Source: Proteromonas lacertae (taxonomy: Eukaryota). From it: 64,000 bases of DNA. The stretch lies in the NCBI GenBank assembly GCA_002245135.1, contig NGBS01000304.1, forward strand, positions 124,001 to 188,000, given 5' to 3'. Both the position numbers and the translations under genes were made by a program. Position 1 is the stretch's first letter. Each line of letters starts with the position of its first letter. Shown in pieces: positions 635-64,000 of this stretch. Under the pieces are notes generated by a model, which was given only the letters and a program-made list of their open reading frames with translations, did not search any database and was not told where the DNA came from.

Positions 635-2400
635 CTAATTATTCTCATATATCTTTATTCCATGTTCTATAGCTGCAGCTATTCTATCTAATAAATCACT
701 CAATATCATTCTATGTTCTGGTGAAATTAAATTCTCATCTCTCATCATATTTACTTCTTTTTACACATAATTAAAGAATTATTTTTATCATCAAAAGATA
801 AAAAAGATATTTCTTTCTTCAATAGAGATTCATATAATGCTTTACCTCTAACTAAATTTGGACTAATTGCATTATTAGCACTCCAATAATATTTCAATGA
901 TTCATTTATACTTTCAATATAACTAATCAAATTACTGAGTATTTGGTTTGAATTATTTACTCTTTTATTGAAATTATTATTATTACTATTATTATTTGGT
1001 TTTTGTGGATAAAGATTGATTAATATCTGTAATGGATTTACCACTGATTCAAATGTGTTTGATAGATTTGGTTTGTAGTTATTTATTTGTTCAATAAATG
1101 ATTCAATTGTATATCTAATATAATAAATCAAATAATACATACATTTGTTTTGAAGTATTATTACTCTCATTAATATCATTTACTATATTCCTATTTGGTT
1201 GTATGATACCTATATTTATTGGTATTGTTTGTAGCTTTTCTTTAGGTATTAAATCATTCTCACAGTTTTCTAATCTTCGCTTCATTAATACATCTTTATG
1301 AGGTTCTTTTTCCATTCTTTCTAACGTATTATAACTTATTTTATTAATCTCTGAGATTGCTTTATAATACTTTTGTTTTTGATTTAATAATTCTCCTTGT
1401 TCTATATATATATATTAATAATTATATACTTATATTGGAAGGTAATTCTCTATTTTCCCATTCATTCATTGGATCTGTCAACGGTTCTTTAATAATTTCA
1501 TCATCTAATGTTGATACTAAATTCACATCTGATACTACATAATCATCTATTGTTAATAAATAATATCTAATAATAATAAATTATACTAATTTCACGTTTG
1601 GTATATTTCTTTGGTGGTTCTAATACTTCACTTGTTTCAACTCGATCTCTTTTTCTATAGAAATACATTCTTGCAATTTCTTCCCAAAATTCTTTTTCTG
1701 ATTTTAATATTCCTACTTCTTTATCATGTAAATTCTTTATTTTTGGAAACATCTGGAAGATTCGTAAGATGATATCTGATGTTATTTCTATTTTTAAATT
1801 TCCCTAATTTACAGATATTATTTTTTATTTATATACACTTTCATCTTCAGTAATAAATTCATTAAAGAAAGTTATTGTTCTTTTATCTGGATTTGTAAGT
1901 TCAGTTATTTCTTTTTCTTTTAATACATCTTGATGATTATACCACCATTCAACATACGATATACTCTTTGATAATACTTCTTCATTATAAAAACTCTCTA
2001 ATTCAATATCTTGCTTTAATATACCATCTGATTTGAATTTATCTGGAGGTTCTATTCTCTATTAATGTATTTAAATATACCAAATCCAGATTTTATTATT
2101 TTTATTATATTTACTATTCGTGTAATTAATTTTTCATTTGGAAAAGTGAATATGCACATCTGAGAAGAGGTTAGAACTAATCTCACCTTGTTACTTTTAT
2201 TTTGAGCTTCTATATATTATAAATTCATTATATATGCTTTCAATATCTGATTTCGGTATTATAGATACACCTACTGTGTTGTCATAAGGAACGAACTTCA
2301 AACCTGTAATATAAAAGTAAAGTTTCCCTTCATGTGCTTTATTTTCCTTATTTGCATATATTGTTTCTGTTTCAAGGATTATTTCATTTTCTATTGACAT
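635..2400 (-). CDS. GTF2H1: TFIIH core subunit p62/Tfb1 (PH-like domain, two BSD domains), 7 introns
   Basis: Spliced product has an N-terminal PH-like segment, BSD1 (ILKQDIELESFYNEEVLSKSISYVEWW), BSD2 (IILRIFQMFPKIKNLHDKEVGILKSEKEFW), LKYYWSA and a C-terminal helix LSDLLDRIAAAIEHG. Needs a GC-AG intron (2210-2237) and an AT-AA intron (761-810). Confidence 0.8.
761..810 (-). other. Putative U12-type intron with AT-AA termini (50 nt)
   Basis: ATATCTTTTTTATCTTTTGATGATAAAAATAATTCTTTAATTATGTGTAA. Removal joins LLKKE to KEVNMMRDE and restores the p62 C-terminal exon. Confidence 0.7.
2210..2237 (-). other. GC-AG intron (28 nt)
   Basis: GCATATATAATGAATTTATAATATATAG. Removal restores the frame (DIEKAQNKSNKVRL). 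Confidence 0.75.
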
Positions 2401-5529: not shown

Positions 5530-7303
5530 TCACTCTATATATGTTTTAAGAAAATCTAACAACTGTTTAATGTCTTTATAAGAAGATAAATAACCTAGTG
5601 ATATTCTAACAGCACCAGTAGCTTTATTCTCAATAATATCAGTTTCATCAGCACAAGATGTTCTTACTCTTGCCATTCTATTAATTAAATAGATTATATG
5701 AATAAATACCTTTTAAAAGTCTCATCAGTAACATTTAAATAATGTCTACAAGCACCAGGATTACAATTACAGCCAGTTCTAAAATGAATTTTTTGTTTTG
5801 CAGATTTCATTTGAATTCCATGATATCCTATATAAGATCCATTTTTATGTCTTAAATTCATGGCAATTATTCCACCTTGAATAGATGAGTCATTCTTATA
5901 ATGATTTCCATATATTTCACATAATGGTTTACCGTTTGAATGTTTTAATTCAATGAGTTTACTGTATAAATAGGATGTTAATGAGTAAACGTGTTTGGAG
6001 ATTTTATCAATTCCTAATTCGTTTAGTGATTGATAACCGTATCTTAATGCAGCGATATTTAAGAAATTGATTGTTCCATCTTCGAATTTGGAACATGGTT
6101 CAGCCTATATATGTATAATATAATTATAATAAAAAAGTAATAAAATAAAATAGTCAAAAATAGTGAAATAATATAATTAAAAAAGAAAAAGAAGAAAGAG
6201 TAAAATATAATAATAATAATAATAATGGATATATACATGAAACAAGCAAAACTGACTCTCTTCTGAAGCATACACTACAGTGCCACCACCAAAATATTTC
6301 TTTCTCATGAAATTGGTCATATCATTTCTCACTAATAAAGCACCTAAACCAGTAGGAAAACCAAACATTTTATAAAATGATAAAGTAACAAAATCTGGTT
6401 TGTATTTATGTAAATCTAATCTTTGAGTTGGAGCAAATGCAGCTGCATCTAATAACACTTTCCATTCATGATTCTATAGAAAATAAAAAAGATCAATACA
6501 ATTCCTCTTTCAAAATCACATTCTAACAATGTGTTATCATGTATTGCTTCAATCCATTCTAAGGGATATTTCACTCCTGCAAAATTTTCTTCTGCTGGAT
6601 AAGCAAATAAACTGTAGATTGTTGTGGTATTGAATGTTCTGTATGGATTTCGTTCCTTTTCTAGTAATTGACATTGTGATTTTGTTGGTAACATTTCTGG
6701 TGGTACACTTTTCCATTGAACACCGAATTCACTTGCAATTTCACGAATTCCTAAAACACTGTTGTGGTTTTCTCGTAAATAAAGATATCTACTTCTGTTA
6801 GTCCATGGAAATGAATCTCCTACTAACCTTAAAGCTGCTGTTGTACCACTTGTGAAAATTACTTGATATTCTGCTTGAGTTGTGTTAAAAAAATTTAGAA
6901 CTAAATCTCTTGCAGTATTTACCTATTTCATATGTATTAATACTATATAAATTAATACAGCATGACTTGTTCTTAAACTTGATGGATTTATACTATGAGT
7001 ATTACCATACAGATTATTTGATAACTCTCTCATCACAGAATCAAGCTGAGACTTACGATATACACCAGCTCCTGTGTAATCAAGATATGCATCATGCTTA
7101 GCTCTTTGAAGGTCCTTTTCCAATATTTCATCTAGTTTACCATCATACCCGTAATCTGGATAGTTTTTCATGAAATCGAAGAATTCAACATCTGTAACTT
7201 CATCGTCTGGTCTTAGAACATCTTTGATAAAGTCTTCATAGTCAAACCCCTCATCGTAACAAAACACAGATAAACATAAAAAGAAGATAACGATGAACTT
7301 CAT
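5530..7303 (-). CDS. Molybdenum cofactor sulfurase-like PLP enzyme (class V aminotransferase domain only) with N-terminal signal peptide, 4 introns
   Basis: YLDYTGAG, GNTHS, VIFTSGTTAALRLVGDSFPW, LLDAAA, SFYKMFGFPTGLGAL (PLP Lys), FEDGT, FRTGCNCNPGAC, GAVRISLG. TGA at 5530 leaves no MOSC domain. Confidence 0.88.
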
Positions 7304-7682
7304 AAATCAAGAAAAAGAGTAAGTGAAATTTTATTGGTCCAAATGTTGGATTTTTATTTAACAAAAAAAGAAAGGTTTTCACACTTGTGTTGTTTACAAT
7401 AAACAATATTTTTGTAAAATTTTATAGATAAGCTTTCAATCTAGCCATACAATATAAAAAATACTTTGCTGCTATCGTATAGCAGTATATTTATTAATTT
7501 TTAGAAGATCATATTGTTCTTATATTATATTATAAAATAATGATAGTAACAATAGAATTGTGATATAAGTGATGATGTAACGAAGAGTAATCAAGCATAA
7601 TGACGAGAAAATGCAAAGAATAACTTTGAAACGGATAAATGCACAAGCCGAGCTTTTCTACAAATCATTTTTTTCTTAAAAT

Positions 7683-8369
7683 ATGGATGATCTTGATGCA
7701 GAAACTTTAGATGCAGCTGGATTTGAGGCTATGGGTGAAGGATCATTTGATGATGCGATTAATTATTTCTCTCAAGCTATAGAAAAGAATCCAACTAATG
7801 GAGTGTATTATACAGATAGATGTGCTGGTTATCTAGGGAAACTCAATGTAGAGAAGGCAATAGAAGATGGCAAAAAGGGAGTTGAACTTTGTCCTGATAA
7901 TGCAAGATGTAACATGCAGTTAGGAGTGATTTATGATTTTCAGAAAGAATGGTCAAAAGGATTGGAGTGTTATGAAAAAGGATTAAAGCTTGAGCCAAAC
8001 AACGAAACAATATTAGCGTTAGTGAGGCATGATAAGACGAGACTAAGCAATAGAGGTGAAAATATATTAACAGGTGTAGAATTATTAGAATTTTTAGATT
8101 CAAAGGGCGAAGAAGTAGCATATTTAACAAGATCACCAGAATTGTATTATTTTATAGATGATATAAGTGAAGATTATCAGAATGCTATAAATTACGTTGG
8201 TGATCCAATAATGGATTTATTTATAGAGTATATGAAGAGTGACATAATTCCAGAAAAAGATAAACAAAAGTGGGAAGAAGCAATGAAAGAAATTGAAAGA
8301 AAAGTTGAAGAAGAAAAGAAAAAAGAAGAAGCAGAAGCTGAAGAAGATGATGATGAAGAAAATAATTAA
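7683..8369 (+). CDS. Sti1/HOP-like TPR protein (3 TPRs plus DP-like segment), paralog A, intronless
   Basis: TPR1-like pattern (AINYFSQAIEKNPTN..YYTDRC..AIEDGKKGVELCPD..YEKGLKLEPNN) and a DP-like segment PELYYFIDDI...GDPIMDLF. Confidence 0.75.
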   Translation: MDDLDAETLDAAGFEAMGEGSFDDAINYFSQAIEKNPTNGVYYTDRCAGYLGKLNVEKAIEDGKKGVELCPDNARCNMQLGVIYDFQKEWSKGLECYEKGLKLEPNNETILALVRHDKTRLSNRGENILTGVELLEFLDSKGEEVAYLTRSPELYYFIDDISEDYQNAINYVGDPIMDLFIEYMKSDIIPEKDKQKWEEAMKEIERKVEEEKKKEEAEAEEDDDEENN

Positions 8370-9010
8370 ACTATTTAAATAATAAACTAAATTATACAAA
8401 GTGGTATACTATATTCGTATATTATTACTTACATTAATTTTGTTAATTTTATGATTGATCAACAACATAAAGGATTATAGAAATGAAGAATAATAAACAA
8501 TGAAACGGATATTAATTTAATAATGAATTATTGACTGAATGTATGGTAGATGATGAATGGATTAGCCTATAAAAGAGCGCAAAGCAGTATAATTAATAAT
8601 ATTAGTGAATAGTCTATTTTTAGCCTGAAAGATGGTAATGAATTTACTAGCTTTAATGAAACCAAGATTTATCATTAATATAAAATTATTACTGTCATTA
8701 TATAGGTTGATCTATGTTTATATAATCATTTAAAACGAAAACAGAAATGATATTGTGTGGTGTGATATAATACATCCATATGTTATAAGCAGACTATTAT
8801 ATGAGTAATGTAATAATTGAAGTTTTTGTAGGATAAAAATGTTCTTTGAAATTACAATATGGTATATATTCTAGAAATACAATGATTCATACTCTAGAGT
8901 CTACAGACTTACTTTATATTGTATATTTCTTCACCAATTCTGAAGAATTGAGTGAAGTATCTTTACTGTAAAATTAAAAAATTATAAAAACAAGCCAAAC
9001 ATTCTTAATA

Positions 9011-9679
9011 ATGGACGATCTTGATGCTGAAATTATAGATCAACTTGGATATCAAGCTTTGAAAGCAGGAGCATTTAGTCAAGCTATTGCCTTATATACT
9101 AAAGCAATTGAAAAAGATCCTTCAAATGGTATTTATTACACTGACAGATGTGGTGCTTACCTTGGGAATGGTGAAACAGAGAAAGCAATGGAAGATGCTA
9201 AGAAAGGGGTTGAATTATCTCCAAATGATTCTCGATGTAACATGCAATTAGGTATTATATATGATGCTATGAAAGATTATGCAAAGGGGCTAGTATATCA
9301 TGAAAAAGCTTTACAACTAAATCCAAATGATGAAATGATATGGGGTTTAGTAAGACATGATAAAACAAGATTAATGAAAAGAGGTGAAGATGAATTAACG
9401 GGAGTAGAATTTCTAGAATTTCTTGATTCAAAAGGAGAAGAAGGCAAATTATTAACTAGATCACCAGCATTATATCACTTTATAGACGATATAAAGGAGA
9501 ATGTTCAACATGCAATTAACTATTTAGGTAATCCTATATTAGATTTATTCTCAGAGCATATGCTAGGAGGAATTATTCCTCCTGAAGTTGGAGCTAGAAG
9601 AGTTCCATGTGATGTAGCTAGAAGAGAATATGAAAAAACAAGAAGAGAACATCAAAAACAAGAAGATGGAAATAATTGA
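9011..9679 (+). CDS. Sti1/HOP-like TPR protein, paralog B, intronless
   Basis: Colinear with 7683-8369 (shared MDDLDAE, YYTDRC, RCNMQLG, LVRHDKTRL, EFLDSKGEE). Confidence 0.75.
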   Translation: MDDLDAEIIDQLGYQALKAGAFSQAIALYTKAIEKDPSNGIYYTDRCGAYLGNGETEKAMEDAKKGVELSPNDSRCNMQLGIIYDAMKDYAKGLVYHEKALQLNPNDEMIWGLVRHDKTRLMKRGEDELTGVEFLEFLDSKGEEGKLLTRSPALYHFIDDIKENVQHAINYLGNPILDLFSEHMLGGIIPPEVGARRVPCDVARREYEKTRREHQKQEDGNN

Positions 9680-12925: not shown

Positions 12926-13673
12926 TTATGCAGAAATTTTGTTCAATATTTGTGAATGAGCAGGACTTGCTGAACTATGCTGTGATGACTGCTCTTCTGG
13001 TATTGCATATGTTGCAGTTCCAGTTTTTATATTCTGATAATAGCTCTTTCCTTTTTCATCATAATACTTAGAGTAGTTTTTATCCCCTATTTCTACTATT
13101 ATCTCCACCATAATAATTCTGATAATCCTTTTTAAAATCTTGTTTGTTATATTTCTCTTGACCATAACCATATTCACCGTAATTCCCCTTCTTATTGTCA
13201 TAATTATACCACTGATTCTGGTCAGCATAATACTGATTCCAATTATCACTGTATTTATACGGACTTACTGAACTAGTGTTGCTAATTCGACTACTTTGAT
13301 ATTCACTCTGATTATCACCATAACAAGTATCATAATCAACTTTTGCTTTAATAAAACTCTCTTTGGGTGGATAACCATAATCATCAACTGTACCAACATT
13401 TTCAAATGTTTTAGGATCATAATAATTGTTGTTTGTATAATCAAAATAATATCCAGATGATGGATCATAGAAGGATGTTTCAGTAGGACGACTTGCAACT
13501 ATTAAATACATAAATACAAAATATATATTTATATATATATACTTTGTTCTAATAATTCAGATGTTCTTCTAGGATGTGTTATTCTTGACACTCTTGAAAC
13601 TCTACTGACATTTGAATAACGATTAGGTGATGTGTTTTTAGGTGGTGGAGGTGGTAAACTATTAATAAATAAA

Positions 13674-13704
<31 letters not shown>

Positions 13705-16182
13705 TAATATATAGATACTTATCAGCACCAGTAATAAGTGCTCTTTCTTTACATCTTTTTTGTTGCAATAACACCATTTCTAAACGAATACGTCTTTCTG
13801 GATCAAATTTCTTTCTTTGCAACGATTCTCTATTAAAGAAATAATTAATATACATATATATATACGCTGCTTTTCTATCATTTTCTTCTTTATCCTTCAT
13901 CAATGCTTTAATATCTTTCATATATCTATCTTGTAATATTCTCTTCAATTCTAATTTATCTTTTCTCTTCTTTTCTTCTTCTTCTAATTTCAATCTTTCT
14001 TCTTCTTCTTTCTTTATTTGGGCTAATTTTTCTTCCTCTTTCTTTTGGGCTTCTCTTAATGCTTTTTCTTTTTCTTCTCTCTTCTTTCTCATTGCTTCAT
14101 CTTTTTCTTTTCGTTTTCTTAATATTTCTGCTTCTTCATATTGTCGTTTTTTATCTAATAAAGCTCTGTAATTATCTTCTTTCTCTTTTAATGCTTGTCT
14201 TCTTCTTCTCTCTTTCTCTAACAATTCTTTCTTCTTTTTATATTCAGATTTCTTTCTTACACAATAAAATTAAAGAAAAAAATGTCAATATAACAATCAA
14301 AAAGATATTTTCTTCTTCTAAAAATTTAATTCTTTCAATTTCTCTCTGATTTCTTTTCAGTACATATACTCTTCTACACACAAACATTTTATAAGTGGCT
14401 TGAATCTTACTAGCTGCACGATGAAATACTCTTTCTTTCCATTGAGATACTCTATCCCAGTGAAATGATAAGAAAGTCCATTTCTTCTCATTATTTTGTT
14501 TTTTAGTTGTAATTAATGGAAATCCTCTGTATATTGGACATGTTTTTGGCCTTTTCATTGTTCTTACTTGTTCAAATTCTTCTTTTTCTTTATCTATTTC
14601 TTCTTTTATTTCTTCATATTCAAATTCTAATTTTGCAGCTTCTGAAGCAGCTTGTAAACGTTCTGAAAGATCATTGGTTGAATTGAAACGTAATTTATCT
14701 GTTCTTTTCATATCTTTCGTTAATTTCTAATACAATAATAATAATAAAGTAAAATACATACTTTTTCTTTATAACTAAGTGATATTCTATGTTTATATTC
14801 TCTTTTAATACATTCCAATAGTTGATTCTGTGCTTCAATATCGTCATCTTTATATAAATGTTTAATCCTCCAATCTTCTCTTTCTACAGTCGATAAAGTG
14901 CCTAAAGTGACATGAATTCTTCTCTCAACTCTTTCAAAATCATTTTTCTCAAAATAACTCAAAGTTCCTATTGATATTAAATGTGTAACATATCTTGGAG
15001 TTAATATATCACCAACTAAACCTCTGAAGGCTTGAGGATAGGAGGAATTAGTGTCGACTATTTCAAAGATAGTAAAACGGTTGAAGCCTTTTGGTTGAAC
15101 AGGTACTATTAATAGGAAATGAGAAAATAAATGAAGAAAATAAGAAGAAAATGAAAAAAATTAACAATAAACATAAAAAAGAATTAGAAAAAGATAAAAA
15201 CAAAATATAATAGTGAGTAGAAAATAATGAAAAAAGTAGAAGAAAATATAAAAACATTATAATATATATACAGATATGACCAGTTATTAATAGAGAATCT
15301 AAACCACCTTGTAATATAAACTGTTTTAAAATATAAGGTTTCTTCACACAATGTTCAGCCAATGAAGATAATGCAATTGTACATGATAACTGTAATGCAT
15401 AATCACTTTCTGGATGATTCCAAACCTCTTCCGAGCTTAACGGAATTATTTCATTTGAGTTGATAATTCCAGCATATATACTTAATACTTCTACAACACC
15501 ATTTAAACATAGTACATCAATTGATTTTTCATCGAAACATAAATTTATCAATATATACACATATCCAGCTTTCATCCTTTCTTCTGTACTTTCATAAAAT
15601 AATTTCACAATTAATTGAAGTAAAGGACTATTGGATATTTCATTTCTTAATCGTTTTTGTGTTGATAGTTGTATTAAGTCACATATGGATGGATAGACTG
15701 AATCTACATTTTTTAACTCACTGACCATTAATTCATAATATCTGTGTGGAATTTCAAATTTTGAATAATCTACATTTGGAGGAGGTGGTGCATTGTATAA
15801 TGATCGTTTTAATGCGTTTTGTCTTACTGTTCTATTGATAAATGTTCTAGAAGCTGGTAATCTTTCTGATTCTTTTCTTTTTAAGATTAATCTTGCAGAT
15901 CTATTTTTTAATACTTTTGCTTCACGAATTTCATCTTCTCTATCTCTTTTAGTTGGAATTTGACATTGCTAAAACAATAAAAGATAATAATTAAACTGGA
16001 TCAACAATGCAACAATAACTGTTTTCAAATTTATAAGTATAAAATCGACTCTTTGGACCAACAGATTCTAAATCAATGAATAATACTATTTTCATACCCA
16101 TGCACATCTGATCAATCAATATTCTCTCCCATCGATATATTTGTCTCATAAATAAAGATCTACATGAACGAACTACTGACAT
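12926..16182 (-). CDS. Multi-exon protein: ARM-like repeats, IQ motif, charged coiled coil, OCRE-like and WW-like domains
   Basis: Exons splice in frame from ATG 16182. IQ motif AASKIQATYKMFVCRR; OCRE-like FYDPSSGYYFDYTNNNYYDPKT; WW-like YSKYYDEKGKSYYQNIKTGTATYAIP lies in the +1 frame after 13080. Confidence 0.65.
14257..14308 (-). other. Putative U12-type intron with AT-AA termini (52 nt)
   Basis: ATATCTTTTTGATTGTTATATTGACATTTTTTTCTTTAATTTTATTGTGTAA. Removal gives FLEEE-RKKSEYKKKKELL in frame. Confidence 0.65.
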
Positions 16183-16395: not shown

Positions 16396-17051
16396 TTATA
16401 CCTTTGATTCTTCTTCACTTTCCTTCTTCTCTCCTAAATTATATTCTTCTAATTTTTTAATCATTGGAACATCACCTCCACTCCATGATGTATTGGTAAC
16501 TTCAATTCTTTCAGACATCTTATCTAACACTGCTTTCAACATTTCTCCAAATTCATTTGTCATTTGTTCCATTCTAATCTTCATTTGTACGATTTCTTGT
16601 TCTCTTTGTGATATTATTTTATTTTTTTCTTCTTTAGTCTTTTTAAGTGTTTCTTTGGCTATTTCTAACTGATTTTGTAATTCTGTTATTGTGTTTTTTA
16701 AACCTGTTATTTGAACTATTAGAGATTCTCTTACTGCTGTGTATTCTGAAGACATATTCACTGCTATTTCTTCACACTTTTTATGAGCTTTTTCGTATTT
16801 TTTATTATATTCTTCTATTTTTTCTCGTAAATATGCATTTCTGGTTTCTGCTTCACCTGCATCGCATCCATGACTTACTATAACAATTAAACGATTTATA
16901 ATACTCATTTGTTGAAATATTACTTTGGTTGTGTTTTCTTGGATCTTAGTTAAGTCTTCTACTGAAGGACCTTCATCCTCCTCTATATATTTATAAAGCA
17001 TATGTCCTATTAATAAGTAATACTCTTTCGTGGTTTGAATTTCTTTGACAT
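16396..17051 (-). CDS. CCDC153/DRC12-like coiled-coil protein
   Basis: C-terminal EIVQMKIRMEQMTNEFGEMLKAVLDKMSERIEVTNTSW resembles protist CCDC153 as recalled. First exon MSKKFKPRK is joined by a GT-AG intron. Confidence 0.55.
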
Positions 17052-27289: not shown

Positions 27290-29074
27290 ATGTCATTATT
27301 TACATGTGGTATAGATTTAGGAACTACTTACTCATGTATTTCCTCTAGTAGAGACGGTTTAGTTGAGGTTATTCCTCAAGATTCAGGAAAGAGGACCATT
27401 CCATCGTATGTGTCATACACTGATGAAAGAATAATAGTTGGCGAAGCAGCGAAGAATAACATTTATAAGAACGTAGAAAATACTATATATGATGCTAAAA
27501 GAATGATTGGTCACAAATTTACAGAAGCAGAAATACAAGAGGATATAAAACATTGGGGATTTAAAGTTCTTCCTGACAAGAATAATGATTGCTTAATAGA
27601 GGTTAAATACAAGAAAGTATTAAATCATCTTCATCCGCAGAATATACAAAGTCAAGTGTTAGCTTGCTTAGTAGAATCTGCTAGAAGAAGACTTGGTGAA
27701 GGAGAAGATAAGATTTGCCATGTTGTTATCACTGTTCCTGCGTATTTCAACGATAATCAAAGAAGAGCAACAATTGAAGCAGGTGAATTAGCTGGTTTGA
27801 ATGTTTTACAGATAATAAATGAGCCAACAGCAGCTGCTATTGCATATGGATATAAATACTATAAAGGAAAAGAAGATCGAACAATCTTAGTATATGATTT
27901 TGGAGGTGGAACATTTGATGTTTCAATAATCGAAATCAAAAATCAAAAGATAACTGTAAAAGCAACCGGTGGTGATACTCATTTAGGAGGTGAAGATATT
28001 AATAGAAATATAATGAATTACTATAAATTACAATTATTAAATGAAGCAGATTACGATATAGATAATAACAAGAAAAAGAAATATAGATTATTAAATGCAA
28101 TTGAAGAAGCAAAAATAAAACTAAATATTCTTACTGAAGTAGATATTGAATGTGATGTATTAGATGATAATGCAGTAAATAACAGTCTTTCAAGATCATT
28201 TTTTAATAAATTAAATGAACAAATTTTTCAAAAGACTATTACTATTGTTAAAAATGTTTTAGCTGAAAGTGAATTAAATGTAAATGATATTGATGATATT
28301 GTATTAGTTGGAGGAAGTAGTAGAATTCCTAGAGTTCAAGAATTATTATCAGAATTTTTCAATGGCAAAGAATTGAATAAAGATATTAATCCAGATGAAG
28401 CAGTTTCATTTGGTGCAGCAATTTTAGCTGAAGATATATTACAAGGAGTAAAAGAAAGAAGGAGGAAAGATGGAATAATTGAATTGATTGATACTCAAAC
28501 TGATCAAGTATTAAATCCAAATGATTCAAAAATGAAATCATATAAATGCTCAAATAGTAAAATATTATTATTATCAAAATCAATATTTAAACCAGATAGT
28601 GTAGTTGACAAAATATCATCTCCTGAATTATTACTGCCTTTATGTAAAAGCAATAATATTGTGTCTTTTAGTGAAGGAGGAAGAAAAATTCCAGTTGAAA
28701 GGAGTAAAAATAGAAAATTAATAGTTAATGATGTTTTATCGATTAGTATTGGAAAAGAGGATGCTGGAGATGTAATGTCAGTTATATTGGAGAAACAAAC
28801 ACCAATACCAGCACAAAATACGAAACTGTATTGTACAACTGAAGATAATCAATCTGAAATTGAATTAGTATTTTATCAAGGAAATAAGAAGAAAGCATCA
28901 ATGAATAAGATGTTAGATCGATATGTTATTAAAAATATTCCTAAAAGGAAGGCAGGAATGGTAGAATTAGCTGTAAATATGGATATAAATGAGAACGGAA
29001 TATTGACTATTAATGTAATACCTGTAAATAGTGATGATTTTAAGTTAGTTAAATTAACAATTCAAATTAATTAG
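27290..29074 (+). CDS. Divergent Hsp70, paralog A (no lid, no EEVD), intronless
   Basis: GIDLGTTYS, VITVPAYFN, INEPTAAAIAYG, DFGGGTFDVS, LVGGSSRIP, NPDEAV. Ends just after the substrate-binding beta domain. Confidence 0.92.
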   Translation: MSLFTCGIDLGTTYSCISSSRDGLVEVIPQDSGKRTIPSYVSYTDERIIVGEAAKNNIYKNVENTIYDAKRMIGHKFTEAEIQEDIKHWGFKVLPDKNNDCLIEVKYKKVLNHLHPQNIQSQVLACLVESARRRLGEGEDKICHVVITVPAYFNDNQRRATIEAGELAGLNVLQIINEPTAAAIAYGYKYYKGKEDRTILVYDFGGGTFDVSIIEIKNQKITVKATGGDTHLGGEDINRNIMNYYKLQLLNEADYDIDNNKKKKYRLLNAIEEAKIKLNILTEVDIECDVLDDNAVNNSLSRSFFNKLNEQIFQKTITIVKNVLAESELNVNDIDDIVLVGGSSRIPRVQELLSEFFNGKELNKDINPDEAVSFGAAILAEDILQGVKERRRKDGIIELIDTQTDQVLNPNDSKMKSYKCSNSKILLLSKSIFKPDSVVDKISSPELLLPLCKSNNIVSFSEGGRKIPVERSKNRKLIVNDVLSISIGKEDAGDVMSVILEKQTPIPAQNTKLYCTTEDNQSEIELVFYQGNKKKASMNKMLDRYVIKNIPKRKAGMVELAVNMDINENGILTINVIPVNSDDFKLVKLTIQIN

Positions 29075-29136
29075 TGTAAAGCAACATTTTTTAGTGTAAA
29101 ATGGGGTATGAAAATTTACATACACCTAATTTTAAA

Positions 29137-30888
29137 ATGTCTCTATTTACATGTGGAATTGATCTAGGTACTACATATACATGTGTATCACATAAAAAAG
29201 GGGATAAAATTGAGTTTATCGATTTTGATAATGATAAAAGAAACTTCCCATCATATGTAGCTTTTAAAGATGAAGAAATAGTAGTAGGTGAAGTTGCTAA
29301 AAATCAAATATCTAGTAATCTAAAAAATACCATATATGATGCTAAAAGAATGATTGGTCATAAATTCAACGAAGAAGGGATTCAAGAAGATATAAAACAT
29401 TGGGGATTTGCTGTGGAAGAAGACAAAAATGATGGTGGCTGTTTAATTAGAGTAGAATATAAAGGCGAAGAATATAAAGCAAAACCTCAAGAAATATCAA
29501 GTCATGTATTATCAGCTGTATCAAAAAGGTTAATCAATCGTTATGCTATAGAAGAAGGTAAAACAATTCATGCTGTAATAACTGTTCCTGCTTATTTTAA
29601 TAATGAACAAAGAAAAGCAACAATTGAAGCAGGTGAATTAGCTGGTTTGAATGTATTACAGATAATAAATGAACCAACAGCAGCTGCTATTGCATATGGA
29701 TATAAATACTATAAAGGAAAAGAAGATCGAACAATCTTAGTATATGATTTTGGAGGTGGAACATTTGATGTTTCAATAATCGAAATCAAAAATCAAAAGA
29801 TAACTGTAAAAGCAACCGGTGGTGATACTCATTTAGGAGGTGAAGATATTAATCAAAACATTTTTAATTTCATTGTTAAAAGGATAAAAGATGCTAATGT
29901 AGATGTAGATATTACTTTAAATAGAAAGACAGAGTTAATGAAAGCAATAGAAGATACAAAAATTAAATTAAGTAAATATGATGAGAGTGATATATCATCC
30001 AGCATTTTGGAAGATTATGATATAGATCAGGAATTAAGTAGAGAAGATTTTAATCAAATAAATAAAGATATATTTGAAAAGACTATGAAAACAGTCGAAA
30101 AAGTATTAAATGAAAGTGGCTTAAGAAAAAATGATGTTGATGATGCTGTTCTAATTGGAGGAAGTAGTAGAATTCCTAAAATTCATGAATTGATGGAAGA
30201 TTTTTTCAATGGAAAAGTATTAAATCAAGATATAAATCCAGATGAAGCTGTAGCTTATGGTGCAGCAGTCTTAGCTGAAGATATTTTGAATGGAGTTCGA
30301 GAAGAAAAAGACAAAGATGGAAAAATCATATTAATAGACATGAAAACTAACAAAATATTAAATCCAAAAGATAGGATGCTTAAGTGTGTTGACCCTAAAG
30401 AAATAAACTCATGTAGTAGAAAAATGATAATACCAAATCAAAGTAGTGGAAGAAAGATTTTAGTTAGTGAAGGTCTTAAAGAACCAATAGAAGAAAGTAG
30501 TCAAAGAAAACTAATAATTGAAGAAATATTAACTCATAATATTGGTATTGATGTTATTAATAATGAATTTTCACCTATTCTAAAACATGGTAATAGAATT
30601 CCATATACCAACACTGAAAACTATACAACACCTTATGATAATATGAAAGTTGTGTCCATAAAATTCAACGAGGAAATTGATTCACAAGAAAAGAAATATG
30701 TATATATATTTAAGTATTTGTTGAAAATTAAACCACTTCCTGCTGGAGAAGTAAAATGTGATATAAAAATGACTCTGAATAAGAATGGTATACTTAATGT
30801 TGAAATAATACCGAAAAATTCTAATCATTTTGAAAAATGTGATTTAGAATTTGGAAGATGTGACGGAAACATTGTTATAAGAAAATAA
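29137..30888 (+). CDS. Divergent Hsp70, paralog B (no lid, no EEVD), intronless
   Basis: Same motifs as paralog A. Start placed at MSLFTCG (29137) by homology with A. Confidence 0.92.
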   Translation: MSLFTCGIDLGTTYTCVSHKKGDKIEFIDFDNDKRNFPSYVAFKDEEIVVGEVAKNQISSNLKNTIYDAKRMIGHKFNEEGIQEDIKHWGFAVEEDKNDGGCLIRVEYKGEEYKAKPQEISSHVLSAVSKRLINRYAIEEGKTIHAVITVPAYFNNEQRKATIEAGELAGLNVLQIINEPTAAAIAYGYKYYKGKEDRTILVYDFGGGTFDVSIIEIKNQKITVKATGGDTHLGGEDINQNIFNFIVKRIKDANVDVDITLNRKTELMKAIEDTKIKLSKYDESDISSSILEDYDIDQELSREDFNQINKDIFEKTMKTVEKVLNESGLRKNDVDDAVLIGGSSRIPKIHELMEDFFNGKVLNQDINPDEAVAYGAAVLAEDILNGVREEKDKDGKIILIDMKTNKILNPKDRMLKCVDPKEINSCSRKMIIPNQSSGRKILVSEGLKEPIEESSQRKLIIEEILTHNIGIDVINNEFSPILKHGNRIPYTNTENYTTPYDNMKVVSIKFNEEIDSQEKKYVYIFKYLLKIKPLPAGEVKCDIKMTLNKNGILNVEIIPKNSNHFEKCDLEFGRCDGNIVIRK

Positions 30889-55274: not shown

Positions 55275-55760
55275 ATGGTTAGTATATTGAGTCATTTAAA
55301 ATCTTATTCTACCACAAAGATATTAACTGTGAAAAATACTAAGATTGTATGGTTATTATCCATTTTTGATGTAGGGATGGCTACATATCTTTTTTCAGCT
55401 TGCTGTCTTTGCATATATCATTGTATGGCAAGTAATCATATCGAAAGGATATCAGAGAAGAGAAGAATTTCATGGTATATGTCTAAATTACTGAAATAGG
55501 TTCCTCTGATATAAAGGTAAAGGGAAACTCACTTAATCGACAAGGTGAGCTTTATGATACTTATGAAATTGTGAATCCACCATTCGTATAACAAATTGAA
55601 ATATTACTGTTAAATAGGAAATAAACGGAGCATTTATAACAACCAACTTTATAAAAACCGGCCCACAGAGAAAAGGTGTATGTTTTGGTAATGAGACGGT
55701 ATTAGCACCTCCAGCAGAAGTAAGTGAAGCATGTATAGATCATAAATGTGAAAAAGGAAA

Positions 55761-55798
<38 letters not shown>

Positions 55799-56756
55799 AA
55801 ATAAATAAATAGAATAACAACACATGGAATAACTACAGGAATTTGTAATACAACAGAATGGGGAAATGAAATGTGTGAAATAAGAGCTTGGTGTCCTTTA
55901 GAACCACCAGAACCAAGTGGGGAAAATATATTGGATAATGTATAATATATTATAATATTATTAAAATAGACAGCTAATTTCACCTTATTAATCAGAGTAG
56001 ATGGTGTATTTCCATCCTATCCAGAACATCCAGTAAGTAATGGTGAAAGTTCAGATTTAAGATGGAATTATAATTTATTTTATCTCAGTGATTTAGTTGC
56101 TGCAGCTTGTCAACCAAATGTGAAATTAAGTCCATCTGTTCCTATTAGTTCTCAACCAAAAAGATTACCTTTGTCTTATCATAGAGATATATTGAATAAA
56201 GGAATTGTACTGTTGTTAGATGTGAATTATGATTGTAATTTAGATAGAAGATGGTCAAAGTATTATATTTAATTATTTATTTATTTAATAGATGTTTACC
56301 AACATTTGATGTGAATAGAATTGATGTTGAAGATGGTATTTCTAGTGGATTTATATCTTTTTTTTAATCATTTTATTTTTTCTTAATTTTATTTCTTTCT
56401 GTACAATTATCGATATACTAGTTATTATTATCAGAATGATACGAGAGTGAGGGATTTATTCAAACTGTTTGGAGTTCATGTATTAGTGAATATTGCTGGA
56501 GTTGGTAGACAGTATAGGTTTATTTATCCATTCATATAGTTTTGATTTAGTACAGACTATGATTACTATCAGCACAGGTGTTGGATTACTTTCTATTGCA
56601 GTAATCTTGACTGATTTTATATTGGAATATTTCCATAGTAAGAAAGATGTGTTTGAGAAACATAAATATGATTATTTAGATTATGCAGGAAATGAGTTAG
56701 AGAATAAGAAGAATAATCGTAAAAATTTGATAGAAGATGATGAAGGATATATATAA
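55275..56756 (+). CDS. P2X ATP-gated ion channel, about 8 introns including one AT-AC
   Basis: YSTTK, TM1, KGYQ, IKVKG, CEIRAWCP, SSGF|NYRY, RDLFKLFG and TM2 (FDLVQTMITISTGVGLLSIAVILTDFIL). Confidence 0.9.
56353..56404 (+). other. U12-type AT-AC intron (52 nt)
   Basis: ATATCTTT...TTTCTTAAT...CTGTAC. Removal restores the conserved P2X motif SSGFNYRY. Confidence 0.9.
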
Positions 56757-57468
56757 TCTTTCATTTATAATACATATTATATTGAGTTAATAATCGATAA
56801 ATATTATTATATTGTGATTTTATAGGGTTTTTAATTATTTGGTTTTTCTAAACTTTTGACAAAATAACCCCAAATATTTAAAATTCTTTTTTTGTTTCAT
56901 GTATCACTTATTTTATAGTGCATATTATTCTCAAAATATTATGTTATTTATAGAATTTTATTAATGGTTTTACAGGAGATTTTGAGAAGATAATCAAATT
57001 ACATTGTTGTAGATTAAATTGCATTTGTGTATTTAAATACATATAGATACAATAAAATTAACTATTAATTTACAATGTAATAAACATTATATACACATCA
57101 AAATCCTCAATTATTCGAATCTATTTTGGAAAGTAACAAGTCAAAATAGATATAAAATTTACACTACTCATTATTATGCGAATAAAGCAATTATATTATC
57201 ATATTTAGTGTTTTTAATGGTGTACAACTCAGAATGAAGGGATATGAGGGTTTTGGGTCATTTTGTTGTAGAGTGATAATAGTGTGATAATATGTGGAGA
57301 GTAGATACTTATAAAATATGTTGATATAATATTTGTGGTTAAAATCTTTGTAATACATCTGTAACACCCTTAACTGAGAGAATATATAAAAATGTCGTTA
57401 TTTTGTAAAGCATTTTTATTGGATGATTTTCATAATTTCAGTTGATCACAATAAAAATTTCACAAAAT

Positions 57469-61152: not shown

Positions 61153-64000
61153 TTAATCTTTTTTAATTTCATTTTCATGAACTTCTATTTTACTAGATTC
61201 TTCATTGTCTTGTTTTGAAGTTTCATTTTCTTTCTTTGGTTTGTCATCTTCTTTAACTTCTTCATCTTTCTTTGCACTTTCATTTTTATTCTCTTCTTCA
61301 TTTTCTTTCACTTCTTCTTTATTGGAAGTTTCATTATTATCATTTTCTTGCTTTCTATTCTCATCCTCTTTCACCTCTTCCTTCTCTTCTTCTTCTTTCT
61401 TTGGAGTAGTTTCATTTTTATTATCCTCAATTTTAGAATTATCATTCTCATTATCTTTTTCTTTCAGTTTTTCAACAGAATCATTACTATTCTCTTTCAC
61501 TAAATCATTATCTTTTACTACTTCAGATTTTTTATCATTATTATCATCATCATCTTCTTCTTCTTTATCATCATTATCTTTTGGATTAATCTTCTTCAAC
61601 TTCTTTGGAATTGGTTTAATAGGTTTAATAACTACATGTGATGGTTTTTTATTCATATTTTTATTCAGTAACAATAAAACTATTACAACTATCAAAACAA
61701 CACCAACAATCACTCCAACTATTATTCCAAATATTTCACCACCATTTAGTCCATCATTTTCACTGTTATTCTTACTATCACTTTTGTCAAATTTACCTTC
61801 ATTATTATTTTCTAATAACTTATTCTCATTCAATATTTTAATTGCTTCTGAACCAACTTCTATATCTGATACCTTATAAACATCAGTATATGGATTATTG
61901 ATCAATATTTCTTTAAACATATTCTCTTTTAACTTCAATTCAGCTTCTATTGATGATTTTATTTCTTCATTAGAATATATATAAGTATACACTCCAATAA
62001 TATCACTATTGCTACTTTTACTTTGAATATTTCTAAATCTCAAATTATTATTGATGAAATAATTAACATTTGGTGGTTTTGAATCAACAATAACAGTTAA
62101 ATTCTTATCTTTATTTTTATTAATCACTTCATTCACTGTATATAAAATACTTTTATACGTATTTAAATCATTTATATCAAAACTTTTCTTCAAGTTATAA
62201 ATCATTATTGGATAGACAGTTAAAGATACTTTCTCAATATCATTTGTTATTGAAGGAGGAATAAAATCTTCATTTATATCTAAACTTATTCTTTCACAAT
62301 AATTAATAGTTTTATTATCCCATTCACCATAATATTCCTTTTGATTATTATTCTCTATTACTTTCAATATACATTTTCTAGATATATAATATTTGTAATT
62401 CTTTGGACAACTAATGATTGATTCACTATTTACTTCAGTTTCTTCCCATATACCATCTTCTGGACAATTGATTTTGTTGACTGTTATTTCTATCTTTTCT
62501 ATATTACTTTTACCTACTTCATTTATTCCATATATTTCATAAACATGTGATGATAATATTTCTTTTCCTATACCACTAATTATTCCTGTTTTTTCATCAA
62601 ATTCTAATCCATTTGGTAACTTTGTTGGATTAATCACATATTTATCAATTTTGCCACTCACTTTATATGGTTTTATCTCTAAATTAGTAATATTCACATA
62701 TAAATTATAATATTTATCTAAGTATTGAATGGTTGGTATTTTCATTTCACATTTACCCATTACTTCACTAAAAACAGGATTAGAAACATAAGGACAATCT
62801 CTTAACACAGTTCCTTCATAATCATCAGATTTCATATAAACAGAACAATCTAAAATCGATTGAAATCCAATTGCAACACTTTCAAAGCCATCTTCAGTCT
62901 GTTTACAATATAATATATTCACTGTAAACTTCAATTCGATTATATCACTACCAAAACTACCACTAAATGCTTGTATTTTTACTGATTTTGGTTTAGAGGT
63001 TGAACTGTAGGGATTTCCTGATATTTCACCAGTTTCTTCATCCAATTCTAAACCTAATGGTAAACTACCATCAACAATCATGAATTTATCAATTTTAATA
63101 TTTCCATTTTCACTGCTAATGGATGGACTTATTGTTTCAATATCTAAATTACAACCAAATACATATTCTTTAGGATTATAATCAATTATTGGTTTTGGAG
63201 GAATACAATTCTCTTCATTTATATATTCATCCCATTTTGGCTCAATTCCATAACCACATAATCTATAAGCATAACCTTTATAACCACTTTGACATTGTAC
63301 TTTGTATTTTGTTCCTTCATTTACTTCAGGAAATCCTAAAATTGGATCTTCTGGACATTTTGGTTGAATTATTTTGATTGAGAATTTAAATGTCTTTATT
63401 ATATCATCTTTTGCTTCAATTTCTATAACAATTGATGTTGTTTGATTTGTTAATGGATCTATTGTGATTTTAGTTGGATTTCCTGATAATATTCCAGTAT
63501 TACTATCTAAAGAAAGACCATAAGATTTCAAAGATTCACTTTCATGTTTAACAGTAAAAACAGTATGAGTTAATCTTCCTTCAAACTCAGGAATAATCTC
63601 CAAATTATGACCAATATATAAGTTAAATAAAGAAGAATTATATTCAAATTTGATTGGATTAGGGAATCTACAATCATTAACCATATTTTCCCATTGAGGA
63701 GTAATTTTATCATTAGAACATTTTATATATTTATCACCAACTTGACCTTCTATTTCACATCCATAACTTATCTTTTGACCTGCATATTTCTTTGGCAAAT
63801 TATCAGTCGGTAAACAGTAAGGCATTTCTATTTGAATATTCACTTTTGTTGAGATTGAATTGAATGAATAATAGCCATAAACAGTGAATTCTATTATTTC
63901 TTTATTCAAATATTTTTCTGTATCAACTATACCATAGATTGTACCAGTTATTCTATCAAATTTTAATCCATTTATTACTGTTTCAATATTTGGTTGAATA
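61153..64000 (-). CDS. Large type I surface protein with alternating putative-Ig (He_PIG-like) and Cys-rich modules (5' end outside window)
   Basis: Repeated LP.GL..D..TG.ISG and C..DG.W..T......CP......R.C...W modules, TM helix GEIFGIIVGVIVGVVLIVVIVLLLL and a charged tail. Confidence 0.85.
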   Translation of the reverse strand, partial: IQPNIETVINGLKFDRITGTIYGIVDTEKYLNKEIIEFTVYGYYSFNSISTKVNIQIEMPYCLPTDNLPKKYAGQKISYGCEIEGQVGDKYIKCSNDKITPQWENMVNDCRFPNPIKFEYNSSLFNLYIGHNLEIIPEFEGRLTHTVFTVKHESESLKSYGLSLDSNTGILSGNPTKITIDPLTNQTTSIVIEIEAKDDIIKTFKFSIKIIQPKCPEDPILGFPEVNEGTKYKVQCQSGYKGYAYRLCGYGIEPKWDEYINEENCIPPKPIIDYNPKEYVFGCNLDIETISPSISSENGNIKIDKFMIVDGSLPLGLELDEETGEISGNPYSSTSKPKSVKIQAFSGSFGSDIIELKFTVNILYCKQTEDGFESVAIGFQSILDCSVYMKSDDYEGTVLRDCPYVSNPVFSEVMGKCEMKIPTIQYLDKYYNLYVNITNLEIKPYKVSGKIDKYVINPTKLPNGLEFDEKTGIISGIGKEILSSHVYEIYGINEVGKSNIEKIEITVNKINCPEDGIWEETEVNSESIISCPKNYKYYISRKCILKVIENNNQKEYYGEWDNKTINYCERISLDINEDFIPPSITNDIEKVSLTVYPIMIYNLKKSFDINDLNTYKSILYTVNEVINKNKDKNLTVIVDSKPPNVNYFINNNLRFRNIQSKSSNSDIIGVYTYIYSNEEIKSSIEAELKLKENMFKEILINNPYTDVYKVSDIEVGSEAIKILNENKLLENNNEGKFDKSDSKNNSENDGLNGGEIFGIIVGVIVGVVLIVVIVLLLLNKNMNKKPSHVVIKPIKPIPKKLKKINPKDNDDKEEEDDDDNNDKKSEVVKDNDLVKENSNDSVEKLKEKDNENDNSKIEDNKNETTPKKEEEEKEEVKEDENRKQENDNNETSNKEEVKENEEENKNESAKKDEEVKEDDKPKKENETSKQDNEESSKIEVHENEIKKD

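Follow-up and report, generated by a model that had tools for sequence, protein, structure and literature searches.

The window (the whole stretch of DNA that was analysed, 64 kb in length) is gene-dense eukaryotic DNA with a GC content of about 26% and short introns. On its minus strand it carries a predicted gene of about 830 codons (the host gene), which combines an ARM-like N-terminus, an IQ-like motif, a charged helix and an OCRE-like plus WW-like end. The match of the ARM-like N-terminus to KAP3 is weak (E 0.31), and the IQ-like motif falls just short of the Pfam cut-off (E 0.0007). The C-terminal segment (13099-12929, minus strand), which we take to be WW-like, had no Pfam match; it extends the host gene in a different frame directly after a GGGG run near 13078, reflecting either a one-base assembly error or a real frameshift. 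The coding region of this gene is interrupted at 14308-14257, and two further segments with the same donor are found in other genes of the window:

12929-15968, minus strand: host gene, predicted extent
14309-14726, minus strand: upstream exon of the host gene, with the IQ-like motif
14257-14308, minus strand: putative minor-type (U12-like) AT-AA intron, 52 nt, phase 1, splitting an Arg codon (from reading frame and relatives)
14301-14308, minus strand: its 5' splice site, ATATCTTT (compatible with 9/10 relatives)
14269-14277, minus strand: its branch-site-like box, TTCTTTAAT (9/10 relatives compatible)
14257-14263, minus strand: its 3' end, TGTGTAA (from sequence and relatives)
13866-14256, minus strand: downstream exon, an E/K/R-rich predicted coiled coil, open in frame after the AA cut
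761-810, minus strand: sister minor-type AT-AA intron, 50 nt, phase 0, in a BSD-domain gene (from motifs and relatives)
56353-56404, plus strand: third minor-type intron, AT-AC, 52 nt, phase 0, ending CTGTAC (from P2X homology)

The remainder of the window holds a varied set of genes. DRC12/CCDC153, a flagellar dynein-regulatory protein, has a homologue at 16396-17051 on the minus strand (E 1.4e-11 to 8th8_S), and the nearest named proteins to the eIF3a of the window are 25-33% identical. Two tandem intronless divergent Hsp70 genes (27290-30888, plus strand) precede a giant coiled-coil gene (31190-53900, minus strand) made of near-identical repeats of 342 nt and about 2.5 kb, which looks to be split into several frames by homopolymer indels. 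A class-V aminotransferase (5530-7303, minus strand), presumably molybdenum-cofactor sulfurase-like, begins with a signal-peptide-like segment and shows no clear MOSC part at its C-terminus. A membrane protein that lacks introns and carries He_PIG Ig-like repeats (Pfam E 1.5e-16) occupies 61201-63990 on the minus strand and runs off the window end. Two tandem intronless TPR genes are located at 7680-9679; shortly upstream of where a TPR gene starts, GTATCTTT occurs at 8957 (plus strand) with TTCTTAAT 46 nt on, a pair that is either a possible minor intron of the GT type within a 5' leader or a chance occurrence.

A sequence-only reading of this DNA had described a 52-nt segment with a donor, a branch box and a TGTGTAA end, and we located this segment on the minus strand at 14308-14257. 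An extended 5' splice site of the RTATCCTT type is the U12-type consensus. A donor of this type, with one C-to-T difference from the consensus, is present as ATATCTTT in all three introns, together with a branch box of the TTCCTTAAC type, which reads TTCTTTAAT in the 14308-14257 and 810-761 introns and TTTCTTAAT in the 56353-56404 intron. The distance from branch to end is 13 (counted from the second A of the box to the AA end), 10 and 18 nt, respectively, and an excerpt of PMC3584512 gives 11-13 nt as the optimum branch-to-3'-end distance for U12-type introns.

The reading frame constrains where this segment could be cut. Without splicing at 14308 a stop follows after 21 codons, and the frame is open only with the 52-nt segment removed; since the frame needs this removal, we read 14308-14257 as a non-coding interruption. 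Cutting after AA yields FLEEERKKSEYKKKK in open frame, restoring the continuous charged helix that had been described, with an expected exon junction of ...GAAGAAA + GAAAGAAATC. The accompanying claim that the two AG ends reachable from this donor lead to stops holds for the two nearest ones (53 nt and 57 nt), but in-frame AG ends are also found at 82, 91 and 97 nt, far beyond the usual branch-to-end distance. An additional in-frame AA end lies at 55 nt, 3 nt past the 52-nt end, and all in-frame ends 10-18 nt after the branch A are either AA or TG.

A protein search with the open frame of the exon recovered ten relatives from two Logan clusters, about 78-90% identical. These proteins were predicted on unspliced DNA and therefore read through into the intron; they were compared as translations only. 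They are not independent of one another, the two clusters amounting to six distinct tails at the 14308-14257 intron; the relatives at the site in the BSD-domain gene amount to four distinct tails. Over the final 30 exon residues, 27-29 are identical in all ten relatives, right up to the donor, and the N-I codons spanning the donor are common to all ten; tails of 11-22 codons then diverge, with frameshifting indels. Each tail was tested for the DNA motifs that its residues permit. The ATATCTTT donor is permitted by nine of the ten tails, and TCTTTRA is permitted at intron position 32-35 in 9/10, across three reading frames, the tail of P0076 being incompatible with both. Five relatives reach the 3' end and AC is excluded in every one of them: C-K at this position forces AA in P0079 and P0085, while V-stop in P0077, P0078 and P0082 allows AG as well as AA. 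The register from the AA end into the long downstream frame was compared in the relatives over five codons. Among the 825 candidates of a weak search, none was a longer, spliced homologue of the exon with the IQ-like motif, homologue searches found no distant orthologues of either AT-AA exon, and the exon alignment, searched against JGI metagenomes, gave 183 pattern matches, none of them confirmed.

The sister intron (810-761) interrupts a BSD-domain gene that we take to be TFIIH p62-like. In nine relatives, one of them with only 46% identity, E-I-S-F is retained over the donor at 810 before the sequences diverge. The donor is compatible with all nine, and the branch box is permitted in six, P0087 ending too early and P0086 and P0093 having no box. 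In the latter two, the TAA of the branch-like box is replaced by TGG, a common allele represented on 11 contigs, and a second TTTTAA just downstream may act as a substitute box in them. P0090 is the only one of the nine to reach the 3' end; it keeps the branch box and AA is forced, with an in-frame AG 3 nt beyond the AA end. In the window, three consecutive in-frame AA ends occur at 50, 53 and 56 nt, and a cut at the closest AG ends leads directly to stops, so the predicted subtype is AT-AA, with the end placed at one of these three positions. PDB searches gave no placement for the last exon of this gene. The same gene contains a 28-nt GC-AG intron (GCAT...TAG, 2237-2210, minus strand), the sole GC donor among the 38 major introns kept.

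Preservation of AA bears on the quality of the assembly as well. Homopolymer indels are present elsewhere in it, and the sequence-only reading had argued against sequencing error from an identical 7-nt 3' end in two genes. A base error in the window is indeed unlikely, as the contigs of the relatives come from other sequencing runs and keep AA at both AT-AA sites, but the end shared by the minor-type introns, with the third one below included, is TGTA plus one base rather than a 7-mer.

The third intron (56353-56404) was found by a donor-plus-branch scan that did not require any particular end. It lies in a P2X receptor gene spanning about 55370-56760 (plus strand), which has six GTAT-TAG introns besides this one, and the first residues of the exon following AC (56404) are precisely the NFRY motif of P2X receptors (P2X7 residue 292; Pfam P2X positions 280-317). 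As P2X homology fixes the AT-AC ends, the organism also possesses AT-AC introns that use this donor. All three minor-type introns, out of about 47 introns seen in the window, end in TGTA(A/C), the third in TCTGTAC. The lineage-specific TGTA(A/C) acceptor consensus proposed earlier is thus matched by an AT-AC intron as well (3/3), but three cases are too few for a consensus across the genome. TG is found at -5/-4 in 3/3 minor-type introns versus 1/38 major introns kept by hand, of which 36 start with GTAT and all 38 end with TAG. Compared by eye as possible introners, the three share their ends and have unrelated low-complexity interiors.

The set of major introns derives from a spliced-ORF model with 56 picks: 36 major introns were kept, two were added by eye and 18 were dropped for mis-set gene ends or an unresolved gene (8/18 with GTT donors). 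We rejected the picks of this model as evidence; it chose both AT-AA introns, but also a 169-nt AT-AA intron replacing a plain GTAT-TAG intron (15271-15106). The composite donor-branch-TGTA pattern occurs twice in the window in its strict form (mean of 0.00 in 100 shuffles) and three times in its loose form (mean of 0.04), both forms having been written after the sites were seen, which makes these odds flattering. A scan of this kind had been suggested as a way of tabulating terminal dinucleotides; run on the 64-kb window, it recovered three loose matches, with AA ends in two of them but AC in the other. In metagenome contigs the motif scan gave at least 120 loci, most of them inside or antisense to long open frames, and the base after TGTA among the matches listed was T in 45, A in 41, G in 19 and C in 15. 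These metagenome matches are chance occurrences and the motif alone is no evidence; likewise, ATATCTTT is also found within coding sequence at 55385 and 6788, so that the donor alone occurs by chance.

Several other accounts of the 14308-14257 site have to be weighed against an AT-AA intron. The sequence-only reading had itself pointed to a 43-nt GT-AG alternative (GTTATA...AAGAAAG), an ordinary intron at 14252-14294 (minus strand) that would make NIFLI coding and that does restore the frame in the window. The residues of the relatives speak against it: a GT at intron position 15 is impossible in all ten, P0080 and P0083 permit no GT before intron position 38, and frameshifting indels fall in what would be coding residues. 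Its GTTA donor and AAG acceptor are also unlike the 38 hand-kept major introns (36 GTAT, 38 TAG, a tally biased by curation), and GT or GC donors further upstream would cost at least 18 conserved residues. With a conserved GT donor permitted in 0/10 relatives this candidate was rejected, and we give it next to no credence. It is somewhat easier to imagine, though still unlikely, that the donor is the same and that the main acceptor is either an AG shifted by one base (53 nt, AT-AG), its frame hidden by an assembly indel in the A-runs just downstream (14256-14227), or the next in-frame AA (55 nt). Blastocystis ST1 often has AT-AG in its short minor introns (44 of 150 rows counted), homopolymer indels do occur in the tandem-repeat gene of the window, and when P0079 is back-translated as closely as possible AG is found at +1 as well. 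The 53-nt end would nevertheless require one extra assembly error, and it would make a K-to-R replacement out of the one difference that P0079 shows right after the end, a difference that is synonymous with a cut at the first AA; at the p62-like site the nearest AG ends run straight into stops. As for the 55-nt end, AA in the window is replaced by GA in P0079.

A different kind of explanation would retain the intron and change the machinery, the minor spliceosome having been lost or merged and AT-AN introns being removed by a relaxed major spliceosome. Rfam gave no matches of any kind within the one 64-kb window, U11, U12, U4atac and U6atac genes included, and major AT-AC introns exist in humans according to part of PMC8280824. 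Against this, the three AT introns are set apart by their 8-nt donor and branch box, both of which fit minor-intron motifs, the box being found in 1/38 hand-kept major introns, and we consider a relaxed major spliceosome very improbable. The reading of 14308-14257 as an AT-AA intron is the best one, with AA conserved in related assemblies at both sites, and we put at roughly 85% the probability that this is a minor (U12-type) intron removed by the minor spliceosome at AT...AA.

The AT-AA subtype is already known from animals, plants, Physarum and Blastocystis ST1. In animals and plants it is the commonest non-canonical minor terminus, all such termini together accounting for about 4% of minor introns (PMC10639083), and a section of PMC1557818 tabulates eight cases from human, mouse and Arabidopsis. 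Such introns resemble those of the window in their AT start, extended donor, branch box near the end and AA end, whereas the window stands apart in its share of AA (2/3), in the small size of its introns (only 50-52 nt) and in its T-shifted signals. Blastocystis ST1, with 346 short minor introns (PMC5608401), is similar in being a protist with major introns of about 30 nt, AT-starting minor introns of 37-50 nt and a loose last base. Its donors are nearly all ATATCC (ATATCT in 3/339), unlike ATATCTTT in the window, its branch box (CCTTCAC/CTTAAC) differs from that of the window introns and lies about 5-9 nt from the end, and its introns mostly end in CAC or CAG, with about 5% AA, rather than in TGTA(A/C). 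Among the first 150 of 339 rows starting with ATATC, counted by hand in supplementary file 32 of that paper, 96 end in AC, 44 in AG, 7 in AA and 3 in AT; one row of the table has ATATCTTTT with an AA end. At a rate of 7/150, two AA ends out of three would give p = 0.006, a value to be read in light of the window having been flagged for that very trait, and an enrichment of AA over Blastocystis ST1 is suggested.

Physarum polycephalum has ATATCTTT donors, and AT-AA makes up 27% of its non-canonical minor introns (bioRxiv 10.1101/2020.10.12.336362). It further resembles the window in its altered branch motif (TTTGA), codons compatible with TTCTTTGAT being present in three of the relatives, and differs in a massive expansion with transposon-like ends; neither such ends nor shared interiors are evident by eye in the three window introns. 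Alveolates, ochrophytes and Discoba have been reported to be without minor introns. Within literature excluding subscription papers and bioRxiv supplements, searches brought up no account of minor introns dominated by AA, none of Proteromonas having minor introns, and no paper pairing GTF2H1 with 'minor intron'. What may be new here is the share of AA (2/3) and the TG before the end.

The motifs, the frame requirement, the point at the donor where conservation ends, and AA in the relatives are properties of the sequences themselves; recognition of 14308-14257 by the minor spliceosome is likely in light of established knowledge. U11, and then U6atac, would read ATATCTTT, and U12 would pair with TTCTTTAAT; the minor snRNAs would then be expected to match ATATCTTT and TCTTTAAT by complementarity. 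How far the 3' cut lies from the branch A (13 nt at 14308-14257) would be the main factor in placing it, at a TGTA-N end, and the last intron base would be under little selection, so that A would be tolerated. We infer that an AT-rich mutation bias would favour T over C within the donor and the branch box, and A over C as the final base. Non-canonical termini do work in minor splicing, often less efficiently (PMC3584512, in part), and human AT-AN introns need CENATAC, as stated in an extract of PMC8280824.

The comparative DNA evidence argues that these AT-AA ends are real and conserved between related genomes, in a protist without an annotated close relative. Nearly all flagellar genes have been lost from Blastocystis (PMC12129017, in part), and the presence of DRC12/CCDC153 in the window thus argues against Blastocystis itself and points to a flagellated cell. 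A flagellated relative of Blastocystis is a speculative placement that would suit the low GC content, the very small introns and the AT-starting minor introns. A probable new minor-intron-bearing lineage is added to the thin protist record, and standard annotation will misread genes with AT-AA introns. More tentatively, this could be a flagellated AT-rich protist lineage with dense, tiny minor introns, in which AA is the main 3' end and TG at -5/-4 replaces the last base as the acceptor signal, a possibility for which we would give rather less than even odds by a wide measure. If true, it would be the first genome in which AT-AA is the rule and a natural test of acceptor choice by the minor spliceosome, and gene finders that rely on GT-AG would mis-model hundreds of its genes. 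A genome-wide dominance of AA would bear on how the minor spliceosome chooses a 3' site without a fixed last base.
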